From IMG/VR virus record IMGVR_UViG_2711768011_000016: 45,693 nt of DNA. One strand, 5' to 3'. A program made the translations under genes and the position numbers. Source of the stretch: a virus (lineage: Duplodnaviria > Heunggongvirae > Uroviricota > Caudoviricetes). Below, in pieces: positions 1,251 to 40,143 of the stretch. The stretch's first letter is position 1; each line of letters opens with the position of its first letter. Under the pieces are notes generated by a model. That model ran no database searches. It saw only the letters and a program-made list of their open reading frames with translations, and was not told where the DNA came from.

Positions 1251-1531
1251 TAGTGATGTTCTTTGCCCTTCTGTTTGCCTGTTCTGACCTGTTCCCACTC
1301 GATACGTCCTTCTTCTCGTCTTTTGTCTATGTATTCCGCAAGATCCTGAATATTGATGCAACGTTTTGCTTTTTGTGATGTACCGATGCGATATGTAGGT
1401 ACAGGCAACTTACAAGCGTTTGCTTTTGCTTCTGCTGTGGCTGGACTCATACCAAAGTATTTTTGACTAACTGCTGAGAGTTCAATGTTTGGGGTATTGA
1501 ATTCAGCCATCAGTAAAAACAAGGTATTCAT
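1250..1531 (-). CDS. PrtN-like / excisionase-like small DNA-binding protein
   Basis: 93-aa ORF with GGAG RBS; KLPVPTYRIGTSQKAKRCINIQDLAEYIDKRR resembles the pyocin-activator PrtN family. Confidence 0.45.
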   Translation of the reverse strand: MNTLFLLMAEFNTPNIELSAVSQKYFGMSPATAEAKANACKLPVPTYRIGTSQKAKRCINIQDLAEYIDKRREEGRIEWEQVRTGKQKGKEHH

Positions 1532-2538: not shown

Positions 2539-3363
2539 TCAGGCGGTGAAAGTACCAATAAAGGTTTCTACTTTGCTGTCTTTGAATTTCTCAACAAGCA
2601 GATCACGAAATTCGTTAGCCATTTCTTCCTGTACCGCTTCCAGCTGAATAATGCGCAGAACCAGTACAGGACGATCGCCAGTGATAATGCTGAGGCGTAA
2701 TTTAAACGGACGTTCTTTCAGACCTTCAAACGGAACGCATTTAAATTCAAATGCCACTGGCATAATGTCTTTGGTCTTCGCTTCGACAGACTCCATCAGG
2801 GAGCGTTTGCCGCTGAAGTCATTATCTTCAAAATCAGCGGTCTGGTTCGCTTCAATTGTGATTTTACGGATCGCCGCAGCCGCTTTGGTTGCCTGAATGG
2901 CGTCACCATTAGCATCAAAGCCCACAAGGTAGTCGGCCCAGTCTTCAATCCATTCTGCCAGTGACTTCTGGGAGTTACGCTCGCCATTAACAGACAACAG
3001 AGCAGAGAACGGAGCTGTCTTTTTCAGTTTGAGAGTGGCGGTGTTATCTGCGTGACCTGGTTCATCAATAGTACCCAGGTTAAGAACACTGACGGCACGC
3101 ATATTATCAGCATCGATAAAGCAGCGGGTGCCTTCATCTGCAAGATCTTTAGAATAACGAGTAAAGTCATCGATGCTGGCAGTGGAAAGCGCACCACGGA
3201 AACGGAAACGATTTAAATTTAATTTTTCCAGATCATGAATGCGGAAATTCTCAGGCAATGCCACAGCATCGGCACCAATCTTACTGATAATTTCATTAAC
3301 ACCCTGAGCAGAAATAAGGGCATGGATTTGATTAATTGCGGTTGCGTCTAAGTTCTGAGACAT
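2539..3363 (-). CDS. yfdQ: YfdQ-like prophage protein (DUF2303 family)
   Basis: 274-aa ORF with GAGGA RBS; sequence and length match my recollection of CPS-53 prophage YfdQ. Confidence 0.6.
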
Positions 3364-3428
3364 AATAAGTCCTCACTATATAAAGATATTCAGTGATGAG
3401 ATAAATAATCGGTTAATTAAGAACGATA

Positions 3429-3791
3429 TTAATGACCTGCTGCGCGGAGTTTTCCGTCAGGTTCACCGGCAAGAGTCAGTAATTGTCCCTGGTCTTCCTG
3501 CAGAATAGTCAGGCGACCACCGCGATTGACATACATCGGCGTTTCGGTGGTGTCTTCTTCGGAAATTTTCCCGCGGTTAGTCGGGCGAACATATGAGAGT
3601 TTGTGTTTGATTTTCACACGGTTCTCATCAAATGGTTCGATTTCCAGGTTGAGTGAGACCTTACCTTTGGTTTTCGTGTTCATCACACCGGAAGCGACTT
3701 CACTGAGAACTGCGCCGATTTTGGTTTCAAATACGCCGCCGTCCAGCTCCCCAATAAATGCCTGCACATCAGTACTGCGTTCGCTAGCCAT
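3429..3791 (-). CDS. yfdP: YfdP-like prophage protein
   Basis: Internal ATG at 3791 preceded by AGGAGC gives 121 aa (MASERSTDVQAF...); the longer upstream extension translates to Cys/Arg/Trp-rich sequence and overlaps hairpins. Confidence 0.5.
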   Translation of the reverse strand: MASERSTDVQAFIGELDGGVFETKIGAVLSEVASGVMNTKTKGKVSLNLEIEPFDENRVKIKHKLSYVRPTNRGKISEEDTTETPMYVNRGGRLTILQEDQGQLLTLAGEPDGKLRAAGH

Positions 3792-4440
3792 TTTGCTGCT
3801 CCTAATCATATCGACCCTGCAAGGTCGGTTGGTTTCTCCACAAAACAGAGAAGAACACCTGCGGTGGCAGCCGCCCGGATGGATTTGGTTATGAGCCCGT
3901 CGTCCGGTGATGCTCTTCTCTGTTTTGTAAAAAGAGCGGTACCAGCCGGAAGCAAGTGTACAAACTGGTACCGCCAAAGCAGTGGCTGTTGTGGTGACCG
4001 GTGCTGATCTCCGGCTTGCGGTTATTTCAGACTCTCACGGGCGTTTAATTGCCCCGCCGAACAGCTCTTTTCCGCATTAGCTGCAATGTCTTTCGCGCAT
4101 CAGCCTGCGCATTCACCACAACGCTGAGAGCACTTAGCCAGTTACGGCACCACACTTTGTCGCGGTTCCATAAATGTCCTCATCGTTGCACCCTGGTCTC
4201 TTCCCAGGCGTCAAACCGAATCGCCACGCTGGTTAGGCGTCTTATCAGCATCATCATTGACTTGCACATTCCGGCTACCTGGTTTGTTTGCCCGAGCAAG
4301 GAGTGGATTGTCCCCTTTAACGTCCCCAGACCGCTAACGACGCATGTGCCATACGCCGTGTTACAACCAAATTTTGTTTAATCTTGCCTGTGCTGTGTTT
4401 CTTTTAGATACATTATGTATCCCAAAGGTACATTGTCAAG

Positions 4441-4468
4441 TATAAAAAAACCTGCCGAAGCAGGTTAT
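4441..4468 (-). terminator. rho-independent terminator downstream of cI
   Basis: On the minus strand acctgc-ttcg-gcaggt followed by a T run, just after the cI stop. Confidence 0.5.
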
Positions 4469-4477
4469 AAATATTGA

Positions 4478-5152
4478 TTAGGCCTTTATTATGTATCTTC
4501 TTGGTTTTCCTGAGAAAATCACTGTACCAATTATAGAGCAATTACCGTTAATCTTAATGTAAGGCTCAGGCCAGTTTGGGTTTAATGCTTTGAGATAACG
4601 CTGTGTTCCATCTTCTATCAACCGCTTGAAGGTGGTTTCGCCTGTATCGTGCATCAATGCAATAACGTCGTCACCGTGGCAGGCAGGGACTTCAGGATCA
4701 ACAAAAATCATGTCTCCCGGGCGGTACTCATCAATCATTGAATCACCAATCACCCGCAAGATATAAGTCATTTCGCCACAGGGTACAGGGCAGGGATAAG
4801 TTTCTGCTGTGCTCAAATCAACCTCAGAATAGCCAACTTCTTTCCATGCTCCGGCCTGTACCCATGATATGACAGGGACTAACGTTATTTGTTTGTTAGT
4901 GATTGAAACGTCAGGTTTTTTTGTGATGTTCGTTGTCTGGTGTTCTTGATCAAGCCATCCGACAGGCAGGTCGAAACATTTTTCGATGTGCCGTGCCATG
5001 CTGTCACCGATATTTTTAGTTGCACCATCTCCCATAAACCTGCTGGTCTGGGTTGGCTCGCGATCAATCATGGTGGCAAAGGAAGAATTCCCGCCAACAC
5101 CATCTCTCAGTTTTCTGGCGTTAGACCGCCGGATGTCATGGACTGTTTTCAT
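4478..5152 (-). CDS. cI: CI-like repressor (HTH plus LexA-type S24 peptidase domain)
   Basis: 224 aa; C-terminal domain has the GDSM serine motif and TFKRL lysine typical of S24 autopeptidases; divergent to a cro-like gene. Confidence 0.8.
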   Translation of the reverse strand: MKTVHDIRRSNARKLRDGVGGNSSFATMIDREPTQTSRFMGDGATKNIGDSMARHIEKCFDLPVGWLDQEHQTTNITKKPDVSITNKQITLVPVISWVQAGAWKEVGYSEVDLSTAETYPCPVPCGEMTYILRVIGDSMIDEYRPGDMIFVDPEVPACHGDDVIALMHDTGETTFKRLIEDGTQRYLKALNPNWPEPYIKINGNCSIIGTVIFSGKPRRYIIKA

Positions 5153-5168
5153 AAAGAAATTAAAACCT

Positions 5169-5239
5169 TTGTACCGATAAGGTACAAGTATCTTGAAGGT
5201 TCATCTCAATCATGTAATATGTATACCGGAGGTACATAT
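5169..5239. promoter_or_regulatory. cI-cro operator/promoter region
   Basis: Perfect palindrome TTGTACCGATAAGGTACAA (5169-5187) and a related GGTAC-core dyad at about 5219-5239; TTGAAG-16nt-TAATAT promoter-like element facing cro. Confidence 0.5.
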
Positions 5240-5242
5240 TGT

Positions 5243-5443
5243 ATGAAAGCGTATTGGGACTCTTTAACCAAAGAACAGCAGGGTGAGTTGGCCGGAAAAG
5301 TTGGCTCAACACCAGGCTACTTACGGCTGGTTTTCAATGGTTATAAAAAAGCCAGTTTTGTGCTGGCTAAAAAACTTGAGCAATGCACGTCAGGTGCAAT
5401 TACGAAATCTGACTTAAGACCGGATATCTATCCGAAAGATTAA
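5243..5443 (+). CDS. cro: Cro-like repressor
   Basis: 66-aa ORF with GGAGG RBS, divergent from cI across the operator region. Confidence 0.6.
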   Translation: MKAYWDSLTKEQQGELAGKVGSTPGYLRLVFNGYKKASFVLAKKLEQCTSGAITKSDLRPDIYPKD

Positions 5444-5474
5444 CAGAACACCTTCAATTTTTAACCACAGAACG

Positions 5475-6038
5475 ATGAGGCTAACCGTGGGTAAGCATCA
5501 CTGGAAAGTAGAAAAACAGCCTGAGTGGTACGTGAAAGCTGTCAGAAAAACTATCGCGGCGTTGCCGGGGGGTTACGCTGAAGCTGCTGAGTGGCTGGAT
5601 GTAACAGAGAACGCTTTATTCAACCGCCTTCGTGCAGATGGCGATCAGATTTTCCCGCTGGGATGGGCAATGATTTTACAGCGCGCGGCTGGCACTCACT
5701 ACATTGCGGATGCTGTCGCACAGTCTGCTGGTGGGGTGTTTGTATCGCTTCCTGAAATTGAGGAAGTAGAGAACGCCGATATAAACCAGCGCCTGCTGGA
5801 AGTCATCGAACAGATCGGGAGTTACTCAAAGCAGATTCGTTCGGCAATCGAAGATGGGGTAGTGGAGCCACACGAGCAGACAGCAATTAATGATGAGTTG
5901 TATCTGTCAATTTCGAAGCTCCAGGAGCATGCAGCACTGGTCTACAAAATCTTTTGCGCTCCAGAAAAGAGTGACGCCCGCGAGTGTGCAGCTCCGGGCG
6001 TCGTGGCGTTTTGTGTCTGTGGAGAAACTAACGCATGA
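5475..6038 (+). CDS. CII-like / YdaT-family regulatory protein
   Basis: 187-aa ORF immediately after cro; position and composition fit CII/YdaT-like proteins. Confidence 0.4.
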   Translation: MRLTVGKHHWKVEKQPEWYVKAVRKTIAALPGGYAEAAEWLDVTENALFNRLRADGDQIFPLGWAMILQRAAGTHYIADAVAQSAGGVFVSLPEIEEVENADINQRLLEVIEQIGSYSKQIRSAIEDGVVEPHEQTAINDELYLSISKLQEHAALVYKIFCAPEKSDARECAAPGVVAFCVCGETNA

Positions 6039-6871
6039 ACAGTTTAACGGCAAATAACCGTTTGTCGCAACAGCTGGTGGTCAGCGTCGCTGAACACCTG
6101 TTGTTACGGCATGAATGCAGATTACCAAATCACCTGGCTGTAAGTAACCACAGAGAACTTTACCTGACTGTGGGGGGCGAGTTGTGCAGGAACTTAACCG
6201 CTGGTTTCGTGACGGAAGAGGACTTTATGTTCATGTTATTCGTTGGGAGCCAGAAACACAGCGCGTTATCTATCTTCGCAAAGACTACCCGCATGAGTGC
6301 TTTAGTCCTTTGTGGAAATTCAGGCGTGATTTTGTTGAGTGTGAAGGACCACCAGCACATTGATTCTGCCATTCCGGGACGTTACACTGTTCAGGCACCT
6401 TATAAAGCGGGTGCCGGGATTGGCGTCCTGGAATTGATCAAGGCGATATATGACGCGCCAGCGTCTTTTTTATCGTCCGCATTTGCTCACATCAAAGTTA
6501 TGGTGGGCTGGGCGGGGGCATCGAAAGATGCGCCGGTTTCCTTGATCACCGGTTACGCCAACCCCGTTCAGTTCACCACCAGCGAAATTGGCGTTTCCGG
6601 TGGTGGAAGTATTTCACCGATCAAGGAGGCTGCCATCATGGCTACTGTCCCAGCCCTCACTCGTCTGAATGATGAAGACTTACATAAACTCAGTTATGTA
6701 ACAACTGCACTACGTGCTCTGCGCAAGGTAACTCTTTCGGATCCGCAGGCACATCAGGTTCTGGTAGAAACCCTTCTTAACTTGCAAGCTGAACGTATTC
6801 GTCTGGCGGATAAGGCTAATTTTCATATTCACCGTCTCCTGAATATCAGCGGAGGGCATCGTCATGCTTAA
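6035..6871 (+). CDS. hypothetical protein (gene model uncertain)
   Basis: Long open frame, but a protein-like 59-codon frame (GTG 6184-6363, GGGGGG RBS) overlaps it and a strong AAGGAGG RBS precedes an internal ATG at 6638. Confidence 0.35.
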   Translation: MNSLTANNRLSQQLVVSVAEHLLLRHECRLPNHLAVSNHRELYLTVGGELCRNLTAGFVTEEDFMFMLFVGSQKHSALSIFAKTTRMSALVLCGNSGVILLSVKDHQHIDSAIPGRYTVQAPYKAGAGIGVLELIKAIYDAPASFLSSAFAHIKVMVGWAGASKDAPVSLITGYANPVQFTTSEIGVSGGGSISPIKEAAIMATVPALTRLNDEDLHKLSYVTTALRALRKVTLSDPQAHQVLVETLLNLQAERIRLADKANFHIHRLLNISGGHRHA

Positions 6872-39566: not shown

Positions 39567-40143
39567 TGGCATTCAGAATGAGTGAACAACCACGGACCAT
39601 AAAAATTTATAATCTGCTGACCGGAACTAATGAATTTATTGGTGAAGGTGACGCATATATTCCGCCTCATACAGGTCTGCCAGCAAACAGTACCTATATT
39701 GCACCGCCAGATATTCCGGCTGGCTTTGTGGCTGTTTTCAACAGTGATGAGGCATCGTGGCATCTCGTTGAAGACCATCGGGGTAAAACGGTTTATGACG
39801 TAGCGTCAGGGGACGCGTTATTTATTTCTGAACTCGGTCCGTTACCGGAAAATGTTACCTGGTTATCCCCGGAAGGGGAGTTTCAGAAGTGGAACGGCAC
39901 AGCCTGGGTGAAGGATACGGAAGCAGAAAAACTGTTCCGGATCCGGGAGGCGGAAGAAACAAAAAACAGCCTGATGCAGGTAGCCAGTGAGCATATAGCG
40001 CCACTTCAGGATGCTGTAGATCTGGAGATCGCAACGGAGGAAGAAAACTCGTTGCTGGAAGCCTGGAAGAAGTATCGGGTGTTGCTGAACCGTGTTGATA
40101 CATCAACTGCACCTGATATTGAGTGGCCTGCGGTCCCTGTTAT
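39566..40143 (+). CDS. tfa: tail fibre assembly protein Tfa (3' end lost in gap)
   Basis: Start overlaps the stf stop (TAATG); 192 codons read before the N run. Confidence 0.8.

Follow-up and report, generated by a model that had tools for sequence, protein, structure and literature searches.

What lies between the repressor gene and the first early-left gene of a lambdoid prophage when the N gene is absent? This question is raised by a stretch of 45,693 nucleotides (nt) from a tailed-phage genome (Caudoviricetes; IMG/VR record IMGVR_UViG_2711768011_000016), here called the window, in which a gap of 686 base pairs (bp; 3792-4477) separates a cI-like open reading frame (ORF) from the ATG of a yfdP-like gene, the first early-left gene, to which no function is assigned. 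An earlier examination of the letters only, referred to below as the sequence-only reading, described the gap as a structured non-coding leader of about 690 bp with no convincing minus-strand ORF and no N-like gene, and proposed for it either a nut- or put-like antitermination element or a prophage small RNA (sRNA). We consider it probable, if by no means certain, that the gap is a small stable-RNA expression unit placed before the yfdP operon. It would be the leader of the early-left (PL) operon on the minus strand, about 615 nt long and untranslated, in an SfV/mEp460-type lambdoid prophage without N, and would yield a processed and terminated sRNA as well as, by read-through, an mRNA.

An RNA from this position has been described. 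sRNA-17, of 193 nt, was found in a lysogen, Escherichia coli K1 RS218 with an mEp460-like prophage, by 5' and 3' rapid amplification of cDNA ends (RACE) and Northern blotting, and is reported to act in the survival of E. coli K1 in blood (PMC7719688; Front Microbiol 2020). The forward primer for the full-length RNA is window 3930-3961 on the plus strand and the reverse primer is the reverse complement of 4092-4124; the RACE primers and the rows of the supplementary alignment of PMC7719688 (primers and probe in its Table S2) also match window coordinates. The Northern probe has the plus-strand sequence of 4014-4063, which places the RNA on the minus strand; by the published 3' RACE, it ends in the U-tract of the GGTACC hairpin. 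Judged by these sequence matches, window 4124 to 3930 is sRNA-17, and of the two proposals of the sequence-only reading the prophage sRNA is the one supported. The sRNA itself has therefore already been published; what is new is its placement in the PL leader, the terminator that would act as a gate behind it, the modular architecture, a covarying fold in which two loops make contact, the relation to STnc100 and an occurrence far beyond E. coli.

Table 1. Features of the gap and its borders, in the order in which the minus strand is read (positions in the window).
Feature	Positions	Strand	Description
cI-like repressor gene	4478-5152	minus	Peptidase_S24 match; ends at 4478
Intrinsic terminator of the cI transcript	4449-4466	minus	AACCUGC-UUCG-GCAGGUU, then UUUUUAU; terminator scan; directly upstream of PL
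OL/PL module	4379-4477	minus	first module read from PL
PL promoter	4412-4439	minus	TTGACA, 16 nt, CATAAT; promoter scan, 11/12 matches
OL (left operator)	4415-4433	strand-neutral	ATGTATCCCAAAGGTACAT (ATGTAT-N7-GTACAT, 19 bp); same motif as OR (right operator), 5219-5237
Module A1	4190-4378	minus	conserved non-coding RNA leader; invariant core CCAGGUAGCCGGAAUGUGCAAG at 4261-4282; mosaic boundary 4378-4381
Module A2 hairpin	4125-4189	minus	closed by CAACGAUGAGGACAUUUA / UAAGUGCUCUCAGCGUUG; from alignments, fold centroid and family statistics
sRNA-17	3930-4124	minus	cassette B, 12-nt spacer and terminator
Cassette B (body of sRNA-17)	3986-4124	minus	139 nt, cloverleaf-like; mosaic boundaries 4125 and 3976/7
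Intrinsic terminator tL	3929-3974	minus	GCGGUACCAG, 19-nt loop, CUGGUACCGC, then UCUUUUUAC; between PL and yfdP
Module C, long hairpin of the 5' untranslated region (5' UTR)	3840-3928	minus	18-bp A/U-rich stem; conserved apical CGACGGGCUCAU..CC.AAUCCA.CCGG
Small GC-rich hairpin	3810-3829	minus	just upstream of the yfdP Shine-Dalgarno sequence AGGAG, 3799-3803
yfdP-like gene	ATG 3791-3789	minus	followed by a DUF2303 yfdQ-like gene

Transcription from PL would start near 4405. The 19-bp operator occurs exactly twice in the 45.7-kb window, at OL and at OR, against 0.11 occurrences expected in a pattern search; the GGTAC half-sites that had been noticed around 4400-4440 are therefore real, and the terminator suspected just after cI is likewise present (4466-4449, minus strand). 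A scan of the minus strand from 4410 to 3792 gave no further promoter-like site. Compared with shuffled sequences, the leader folds with a z of -3.6 on the minus strand and -2.2 on the plus strand. Its description as structured and non-coding is supported. On the plus strand, the Rfam models STnc370 and STnc50 match window 4403-4476 (22-25 bits, E about 1-2), a stretch that covers the cI terminator and PL; these matches are probably due to chance, driven by the bidirectional hairpin.

The body of sRNA-17, cassette B, has a definite fold. Its closing stem P1 (GUUGUGGUG / CACCACAAC) is followed by an AAU linker, a hairpin P2 (GCGCA-GGCUGA-UGCGC), a variable middle and a hairpin P4 (GCCGG-AGAUCAGCA-CCGG(U)), and the loops of P2 and P4 are complementary (GCUGA / UCAGC). 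The two segments around the variable middle, GUUGUGGUGAAUGCGCAGGCUGAUGCGC on the 5' side and GCCGGAGAUCAGCACCGGYCACCACAAC on the 3' side, are common to otherwise unrelated phages, namely Klebsiella phage 6991, the siphovirus swi2 (Swiduovirus), Magnus (Ackermannviridae) and a P1 variant. At least 120 IMG/VR contigs carry the exact 24-nt core TGRTGAATGCGCAGGCTGATGCGC; they gave 96 distinct versions of the cassette, with middles of about 20 to 200 nt. In an alignment of 50 sequences, 94.4% of the cells are paired, and 39 cells in P1 and P4 show double changes, compared with 12.4 in shuffled alignments (none of 500 reached this number). Hairpin P2 and its loop could not be judged on this set because they are fixed by the search pattern, and loop variants were therefore scanned. 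All three independent GCUGA to GCCGA variants of the 5' loop carry the matching UCAGC to (U/A)CGGC change in the 3' loop; one ACUGA / UCAGU case is also compensated and two G to U variants are uncompensated. The fold thus leads from the closing stem through AAU to the 5' hairpin, then to the variable arm and on to the 3' hairpin, which directly abuts the closing stem; with the two loops paired, the arrangement is cloverleaf-like. R1, the covariance model of this family, has its sole match in the window at 3986-4124, with 86.9 bits.

Behind the cassette, the shorter of the two inverted repeats seen in the sequence-only reading is an intrinsic terminator, tL, and the longer one is a hairpin of the yfdP 5' UTR. 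The arms of tL (3936-3945 and 3965-3974) are complementary at 10 of 10 positions in a stem of 10-13 bp, and the hairpin 3936-3974 has a folding energy of -21.2 kcal/mol (z -4.3 against shuffles); a simple terminator scan missed it because its loop exceeds 8 nt. It is kept as a structure rather than as a sequence: ST64B has GUCGGCGUC..GACGCCGAC-CUUUUUAC, Eeyore GCCCAUC..GGUGGGC-ACCUUUUUUAC and the O157 typing phage 9 GGCGGUGAU..AUCACCGCC-CUUUUUAC, with different stems and the same U-tract, and it is present in all 80 yfdP-linked leaders examined. Since no promoter-like site lies between tL and yfdP on the minus strand, the early-left genes should depend on read-through. The deletion made in RS218, in which about 3980-4096 was swapped for a resistance cassette, raised yfdP expression by 2^6.6, that is about 95-fold (PMC7719688). 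This rise fits a gate acting in cis before yfdP; a promoter reading outwards from the resistance cassette could equally explain it.

Hairpin C is always found together with the terminator and the yfdP-like gene. Its arms (3840-3864 and 3904-3928) are 25 nt long and 84% complementary, and its energy of -48.3 kcal/mol lies far from that of shuffled sequences (z -7.2). It is conserved in SfV, ST64B, phiNP and Eeyore with an invariant apical sequence; among five phages 91% of the cells are paired, compared with 43-53% when the partners are slid, and six pairs show double changes (4 of 500 shuffles as high), which on five sequences is modest support. Both repeats fold much more stably than shuffled sequences, and both are conserved and covary in related phages; the lack of conservation or covariation that would have counted against the sequence-only reading was not observed. 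The small hairpin next to the yfdP Shine-Dalgarno sequence differs in stem sequence in ST64B, phiNP and Eeyore, with 74% of the cells paired, and is weakly supported. Hairpin C may act as a 5'-UTR element for stability, processing or translation.

The leader as a whole is a mosaic. By BLAST against phages, the gap is kept at 88-100% in cdtI, Ayreon, mEp460, several Stx2 phages and SfV, and 2663 of 5426 complete E. coli genomes contain it at least in part, mostly without annotation; ST64B and phiNP also have long distances between cI and yfdP, of 815 and about 990 nt, respectively. Among 74 distinct leaders, all upstream of identical yfdP-like proteins and used for mosaic mapping and not for covariation, the same four positions recur as ends of the similarity to the window (3976/7, 4004, 4125 and 4378-81). 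They delimit the modules: OL/PL, A1 plus A2 (4125-4378), the cassette (3977-4125), and the terminator with hairpin C (3792-3976).

A1 and A2 together form about 250 nt of conserved non-coding RNA. The A1 core is present in a single copy in the window and in at least 120 IMG/VR contigs, and it is met in three settings: behind lambdoid PL promoters; in phage P1, directly after tRNA-Ile and before ban; and in Uetakevirus-type phages, before tRNA-Arg, as also in typing phage 9. Two A1 hairpins show compensatory changes. In A2, the 3' strand carries a BoxA-like motif, UGCUCUCA (4125-4132), which overlaps the first bases of the cassette stem and pairs with 4171-4182 in the fold centroid. Typing phage 9 has the order A1, A2, tRNA-Arg, terminator, which is the order of the window with a tRNA in place of the cassette, and the 5' end of this tRNA lies 4 nt from the position of the RACE 5' end of sRNA-17. 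This is the strongest pointer to A1-A2 being a generic leader for stable RNAs and to the 5' end of the sRNA arising by the processing of a longer PL transcript.

The cassette slot is itself subject to swapping. Between the same stem arms (GCGUUGUGGU..CACCACAAC) and before the same terminator it holds three types of cargo: type B in the window and mEp460, an STnc100-like type in SfV and ST64B, and a third type in Ayreon and cdtI. The STnc100 type accounts for 30 of the 80 yfdP-linked leaders. The Rfam model of STnc100 (RF02076) matches the leader slot of SfV over its full length (39.5 bits, E 1e-5) and that of ST64B (35.1 bits), and a P1-variant copy (contig L005, 3702-3830) is matched by both R1 and STnc100 (33.9 bits); all these copies, in SfV, ST64B and P1 (33.9-39.5 bits), stay below the curated gathering threshold of 47 bits. 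R1 also finds weaker copies in P1 and SfV. The STnc100 consensus consists of caUGGUGAAU, a hairpin, a variable region and CCGGGAGGCACCCGG-CACCAug, which is the scaffold of the window; put more generally, the window RNA has in turn UGGUGAAU, a first hairpin, the variable region, a CCGG hairpin directly abutting CACCA, and a terminator. The STnc100 model gives no match in 3300-5500 at E<=10, nor in the whole window at its gathering threshold, and Rfam searched over 3300-5500 at permissive E-values yields matches at chance level only, none of them on the modules. On the sequence comparison, the window cassette is a sister of STnc100. STnc100 has been linked to PasD, an Hfq-associated prophage sRNA (bioRxiv 10.64898/2026.05.13.724894). 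The prophage sRNAs svsR, Pas and HnrS were considered as well and rejected, as they are located at the cI 3' end or in the late region.

On this basis the following course of events can be proposed. Transcription would start at PL and, in the lysogen, may stem in part from read-through of the cI terminator. The transcript would run through A1-A2 and then through the cloverleaf-like cassette, and most transcripts would stop at tL, the 3' end of the sRNA. The 5' end would be set by processing at the foot of the cassette stem, where tRNA-Arg begins in a related phage. The product, sRNA-17, would be a trans-acting sRNA of an STnc100 superfamily with a conserved scaffold and a hypervariable cargo, whereas transcripts reading through tL would become the yfdP-yfdQ mRNA, with hairpin C in the 5' UTR, probably as a stability or processing element.

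Several points weigh against this account. The source of the transcript, its 5' processing and the partial termination are read from anatomy and comparison. In the lysogen in which sRNA-17 was detected, PL should be repressed, and an ArcA-controlled promoter has been reported for the sRNA on a fragment that corresponds to window 4125-4372, inside A1-A2 (PMC7719688). The long-range pairs predicted in A1 by RNAalifold never vary in the sample, and no covariation can come from an invariant core. The cassette family was gathered by an exact 24-nt pattern (at least 120 contigs), so that conservation inside the pattern region is there by construction. The 19-nt loop could make tL weak or strong. Finally, the invariance of the scaffold across proteobacterial classes exceeds the needs of an ordinary Hfq-dependent sRNA and suggests a partner or function that this account misses. 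Another view, as published, holds that sRNA-17 is an independent gene with its own ArcA-repressed sigma-70 promoter in 4125-4372 and the DNA upstream of 4124 is promoter and not template for RNA. It draws on the reported 5' RACE end at about 4124, the ArcA-dependent expression and the promoter fragment (PMC7719688), and on the fact that in other phages the cassette lies directly behind a -10 box. We nevertheless think it unlikely. No promoter-like hexamer pair is found on the minus strand of 4125-4372, and this segment is a conserved RNA-like module with compensatory changes in its hairpins, which follows a tRNA in P1 and precedes one in typing phage 9. The quantitative reverse-transcription PCR amplicon of the same authors (primers at 4372 and 3977) spans A1 to B and reaches beyond their 5' end, implying a longer precursor, and the RACE described there does not tell primary ends from processed ones. 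That the gap encodes a small protein, N-like or other, is extremely improbable. There are minus-strand ORFs of 39, 36 and 49 amino acids, and phage records annotate hypothetical proteins in the region; the longest ORF (3809-3955, over the terminator and hairpin C) matches the unannotated phrog_33599 with an E of 1.5e-16, a family probably built from over-called ORFs. RefSeq records that match here mostly carry no annotation, indels interrupt the frame of this ORF in phiNP and Eeyore, and its substitutions show no codon phase and no excess at third positions (14/18/14, 15/16/10 and 17/15/11). Module A1, compared among three sequence types, keeps no reading frame either and its substitutions are flat by codon phase, and module boundaries cut through the ORFs. 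None of the minus-strand ORFs of the gap matches Pfam or the N family, while a control, the N-like protein of a related contig, does match phrog_271. The view that the gap holds neither a convincing minus-strand ORF nor an N-like gene is thus upheld, and 3792-4477 contains no conserved ORF.

The remaining alternatives see in the leader an aid to elongation. The nut- or put-like element of the sequence-only reading finds no support: there is no put profile match, no N and no boxB, the elements are present in single copies, and the GGTACC repeat, being the terminator, and the longer repeat, being the 5'-UTR hairpin, are both without antiterminator features. The put profile, built from 13 hand-aligned sequences (seven putL and six putR) and used with nhmmer as a sequence-level comparison, recovers HK022 putL with 74.5 bits and putR with 56 bits; it finds nothing in the leader or in A1 homologues, and its best hit in the window (E 5.7, 2664-2685) falls outside the leader, while BLAST for put gives at best a 9-mer (E 0.39). 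A1 or the cassette scaffold could still act in cis, without homology to put, to make RNA polymerase resistant to tL and later terminators. The absence of N, a terminator between PL and every early-left gene, the position of A1 right after the transcription start, as for putL, and a class-wide invariance of the scaffold such as is expected of an RNA that binds a universally conserved machine would all suit this idea; the first A1 hairpin even has a short colinear resemblance to putL, CGGCG..AUGCGUCG..AGCG, which is not significant. We judge it quite unlikely: besides the negative profile, the A1 core and cassette B each occur only once in the window, with no copy on the PR side, and the mapped 3' end of the sRNA at tL means that termination does occur. 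The cassette is found alongside a classical nutL and N in lambda-like contigs, and is therefore not a substitute for N; it also exists as a stand-alone unit of promoter, cassette and terminator, and STnc100-type leaders without A1 still keep the terminator. Alternatively, UGCUCUCA could be a working BoxA that recruits NusB/NusE and shields the long untranslated transcript from Rho. It resembles the BoxA of rrn, UGCUCUUUAACAA, and that of lambda, CGCUCUUA; a strict form, UGCUCUUU, is found ahead of the cassette at 32 of 183 distinct loci, and an untranslated leader of some 600 nt is a natural target for Rho. BoxA has a core of 8 nt (PMC3177189). Any BoxA-like form is seen in 58 of the 183 loci, however, the motif being varied or absent in the other 125, with variants such as AGUCCCCAGCCGU at the same place. 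Because a complementary AAGAGCA lies upstream in 47 of the 58, the motif is best understood as one side of a helix. In lambda-like contigs a consensus BoxA stands apart from it, further upstream. The leader RNA, richer in G than in C (plus-strand GC skew -0.15 to -0.26 over 4000-4300) and heavily folded, should be a poor rut substrate. A functional BoxA thus seems improbable, and RNA-based antitermination and Nus-dependent protection from Rho are minor possibilities next to a processed and terminated PL leader.

The cassette has a distribution well beyond the leaders discussed so far. In other phages it may have its own -10 box 7-8 nt before the stem, lie behind tRNAs or tRNA-like T-arms, or occur in tandem arrays, as in the P1 ban operon. 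In lambda-like IMG/VR contigs (L040, L022, L119, L053 and L086) it is placed inside an extended stem between nutL (boxA, boxB) and the N-like start codon, the position of the lambda N-leader stem. R1 gives no match in lambda itself, and the lambda N-leader was rejected as a homologue of the cassette. Of 149 loci, 55 have a terminator-like site no more than 130 nt behind the cassette, compared with 22 in upstream controls and one in shuffles. The exact 24-nt core is found in 84 species-representative genomes that span Enterobacterales, Aeromonas, Pseudomonas, many Betaproteobacteria, some Alphaproteobacteria, one Geobacteraceae and one Phycisphaerales metagenome-assembled genome; a full-text search of the literature for the scaffold sequence found no paper. 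It is tempting to speculate that the scaffold represents an unrecognised pan-proteobacterial class of structured phage RNA, with a covarying closing stem, two near-invariant hairpins that pair through their loops, a tRNA-like and tRNA-interchangeable character and a hypervariable cargo. Binding to a universal host machine, such as RNase P, RNA polymerase or the translation apparatus, would account for its invariance. Local branches of the class would include STnc100, PasD and sRNA-17, and with A1-A2 the scaffold would make up a portable stable-RNA expression cassette swapped at its stem arms. Taken as a whole, this proposal is tentative and rather doubtful.

Phage P1 (AF234172) carries two RNAs of the cassette family on the ban-operon strand, at 1806-1911 (67.9 bits) and 2067-2194 (35.7 bits), which sit under or beside the opposite-strand coding sequences plp and upl. 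These two genes may be over-calls on an array of non-coding RNAs that also comprises tRNA-Asn, tRNA-Thr and a "dicF-like region".

These results bear on several questions. If sRNA-17 is the terminated and processed end of a PL leader, its regulation by repressor, induction and ArcA, as well as the roughly 95-fold rise of yfdP, would have to be seen in a new light. sRNA-17, STnc100 and, via STnc100, PasD would be tied to a single scaffold with a testable tertiary contact that reaches far beyond enteric bacteria. In phages of the SfV, ST64B and mEp460 types, which about half of complete E. coli genomes contain at least in part, the position of lambda's N is taken by a slot for exchangeable sRNAs and a conserved terminator, so that the way in which they express early-left genes without N becomes directly testable. 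As to annotation, the same RNAs underlie annotated ORFs in P1 and in many other phage records.

Further elements of the window deserve mention. On the plus strand, isrK (6395-6471) and a C4 antisense RNA (6496-6583) both score above the Rfam gathering thresholds and lie inside a 278-amino-acid ORF (6035-6871) annotated as an "immunity region" protein in the SfV and Ayreon records; this looks like an immI-like antirepressor control module of P1/P7 in a lambdoid prophage. The Rfam family IS009 matches 39909-40107 (plus strand) with 224.6 bits, well above gathering. On the early-left side, a protein of the PrtN / pyocin-activator family is encoded at 1253-1531 (minus strand), downstream of yfdQ and one intervening ORF. 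Two resemblances of the cassette were discarded: a hammerhead-like CUGAUG..GAAA, by eye, since the GAAA is not conserved, and for want of an Rfam match; and the "ACCA" ends as a tRNA-like CCA, since they are part of the extended helix in lambda-like contigs.

It is instructive to set this leader beside known systems. Like put of HK022, it is a structured RNA just past PL in an N-less lambdoid phage, but it is single-copy and three to six times longer, and the transcript has been shown to end at the terminator behind it. Among putL variants in IMG/VR contigs, for their part, a compensatory swap (AGACG/CGUCU versus UGUCG/CGACA) is seen in the short 5' helix known from cryo-EM, and putR is almost invariant. 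With lambda nutL the likeness is one of place, as lambda-like contigs have this cassette in the interval from nutL to the N start codon. In the window itself N and a boxB-like pentaloop hairpin are missing, and probably a consensus BoxA as well; the hairpin that follows its BoxA-like motif, GCGCA-GGCUGA-UGCGC, has a 6-nt loop that pairs with the P4 loop instead of a boxB pentaloop, and the lambda-like contigs carry a separate GCGCUGAAGAAGCGC upstream. With tRNAs and tRNA-like RNAs the cassette shares a closing stem, a linker of 2-3 nt, a 5' hairpin, a variable arm, a flush 3' hairpin and a contact between loops; a real tRNA-Arg can occupy its position, and it often adjoins tRNAs. It differs from them in having no T-loop or D-loop consensus and no anticodon arm, and neither ARAGORN nor the Rfam tRNA model detects a tRNA in the window.

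The closest relatives are sRNA-17 and STnc100. The RNA of PMC7719688 has the same sequence, the same strand and the same 3' end at the GGTACC terminator, but that paper treats it as an isolated ArcA-regulated gene without an Rfam relative, and does not include the PL-leader placement, the fold, the terminator gate before yfdP, the swapping of cassettes or the wider family. With STnc100 and PasD the window RNA has in common the succession NNUGGUG-AAU, hairpin, variable region, CCGG hairpin flush with CACCANN, and terminator. Its P2 and P4 hairpins differ from theirs in sequence and have complementary loops, a pairing that is not seen in STnc100-type copies, and its core is found well beyond the Gammaproteobacteria.

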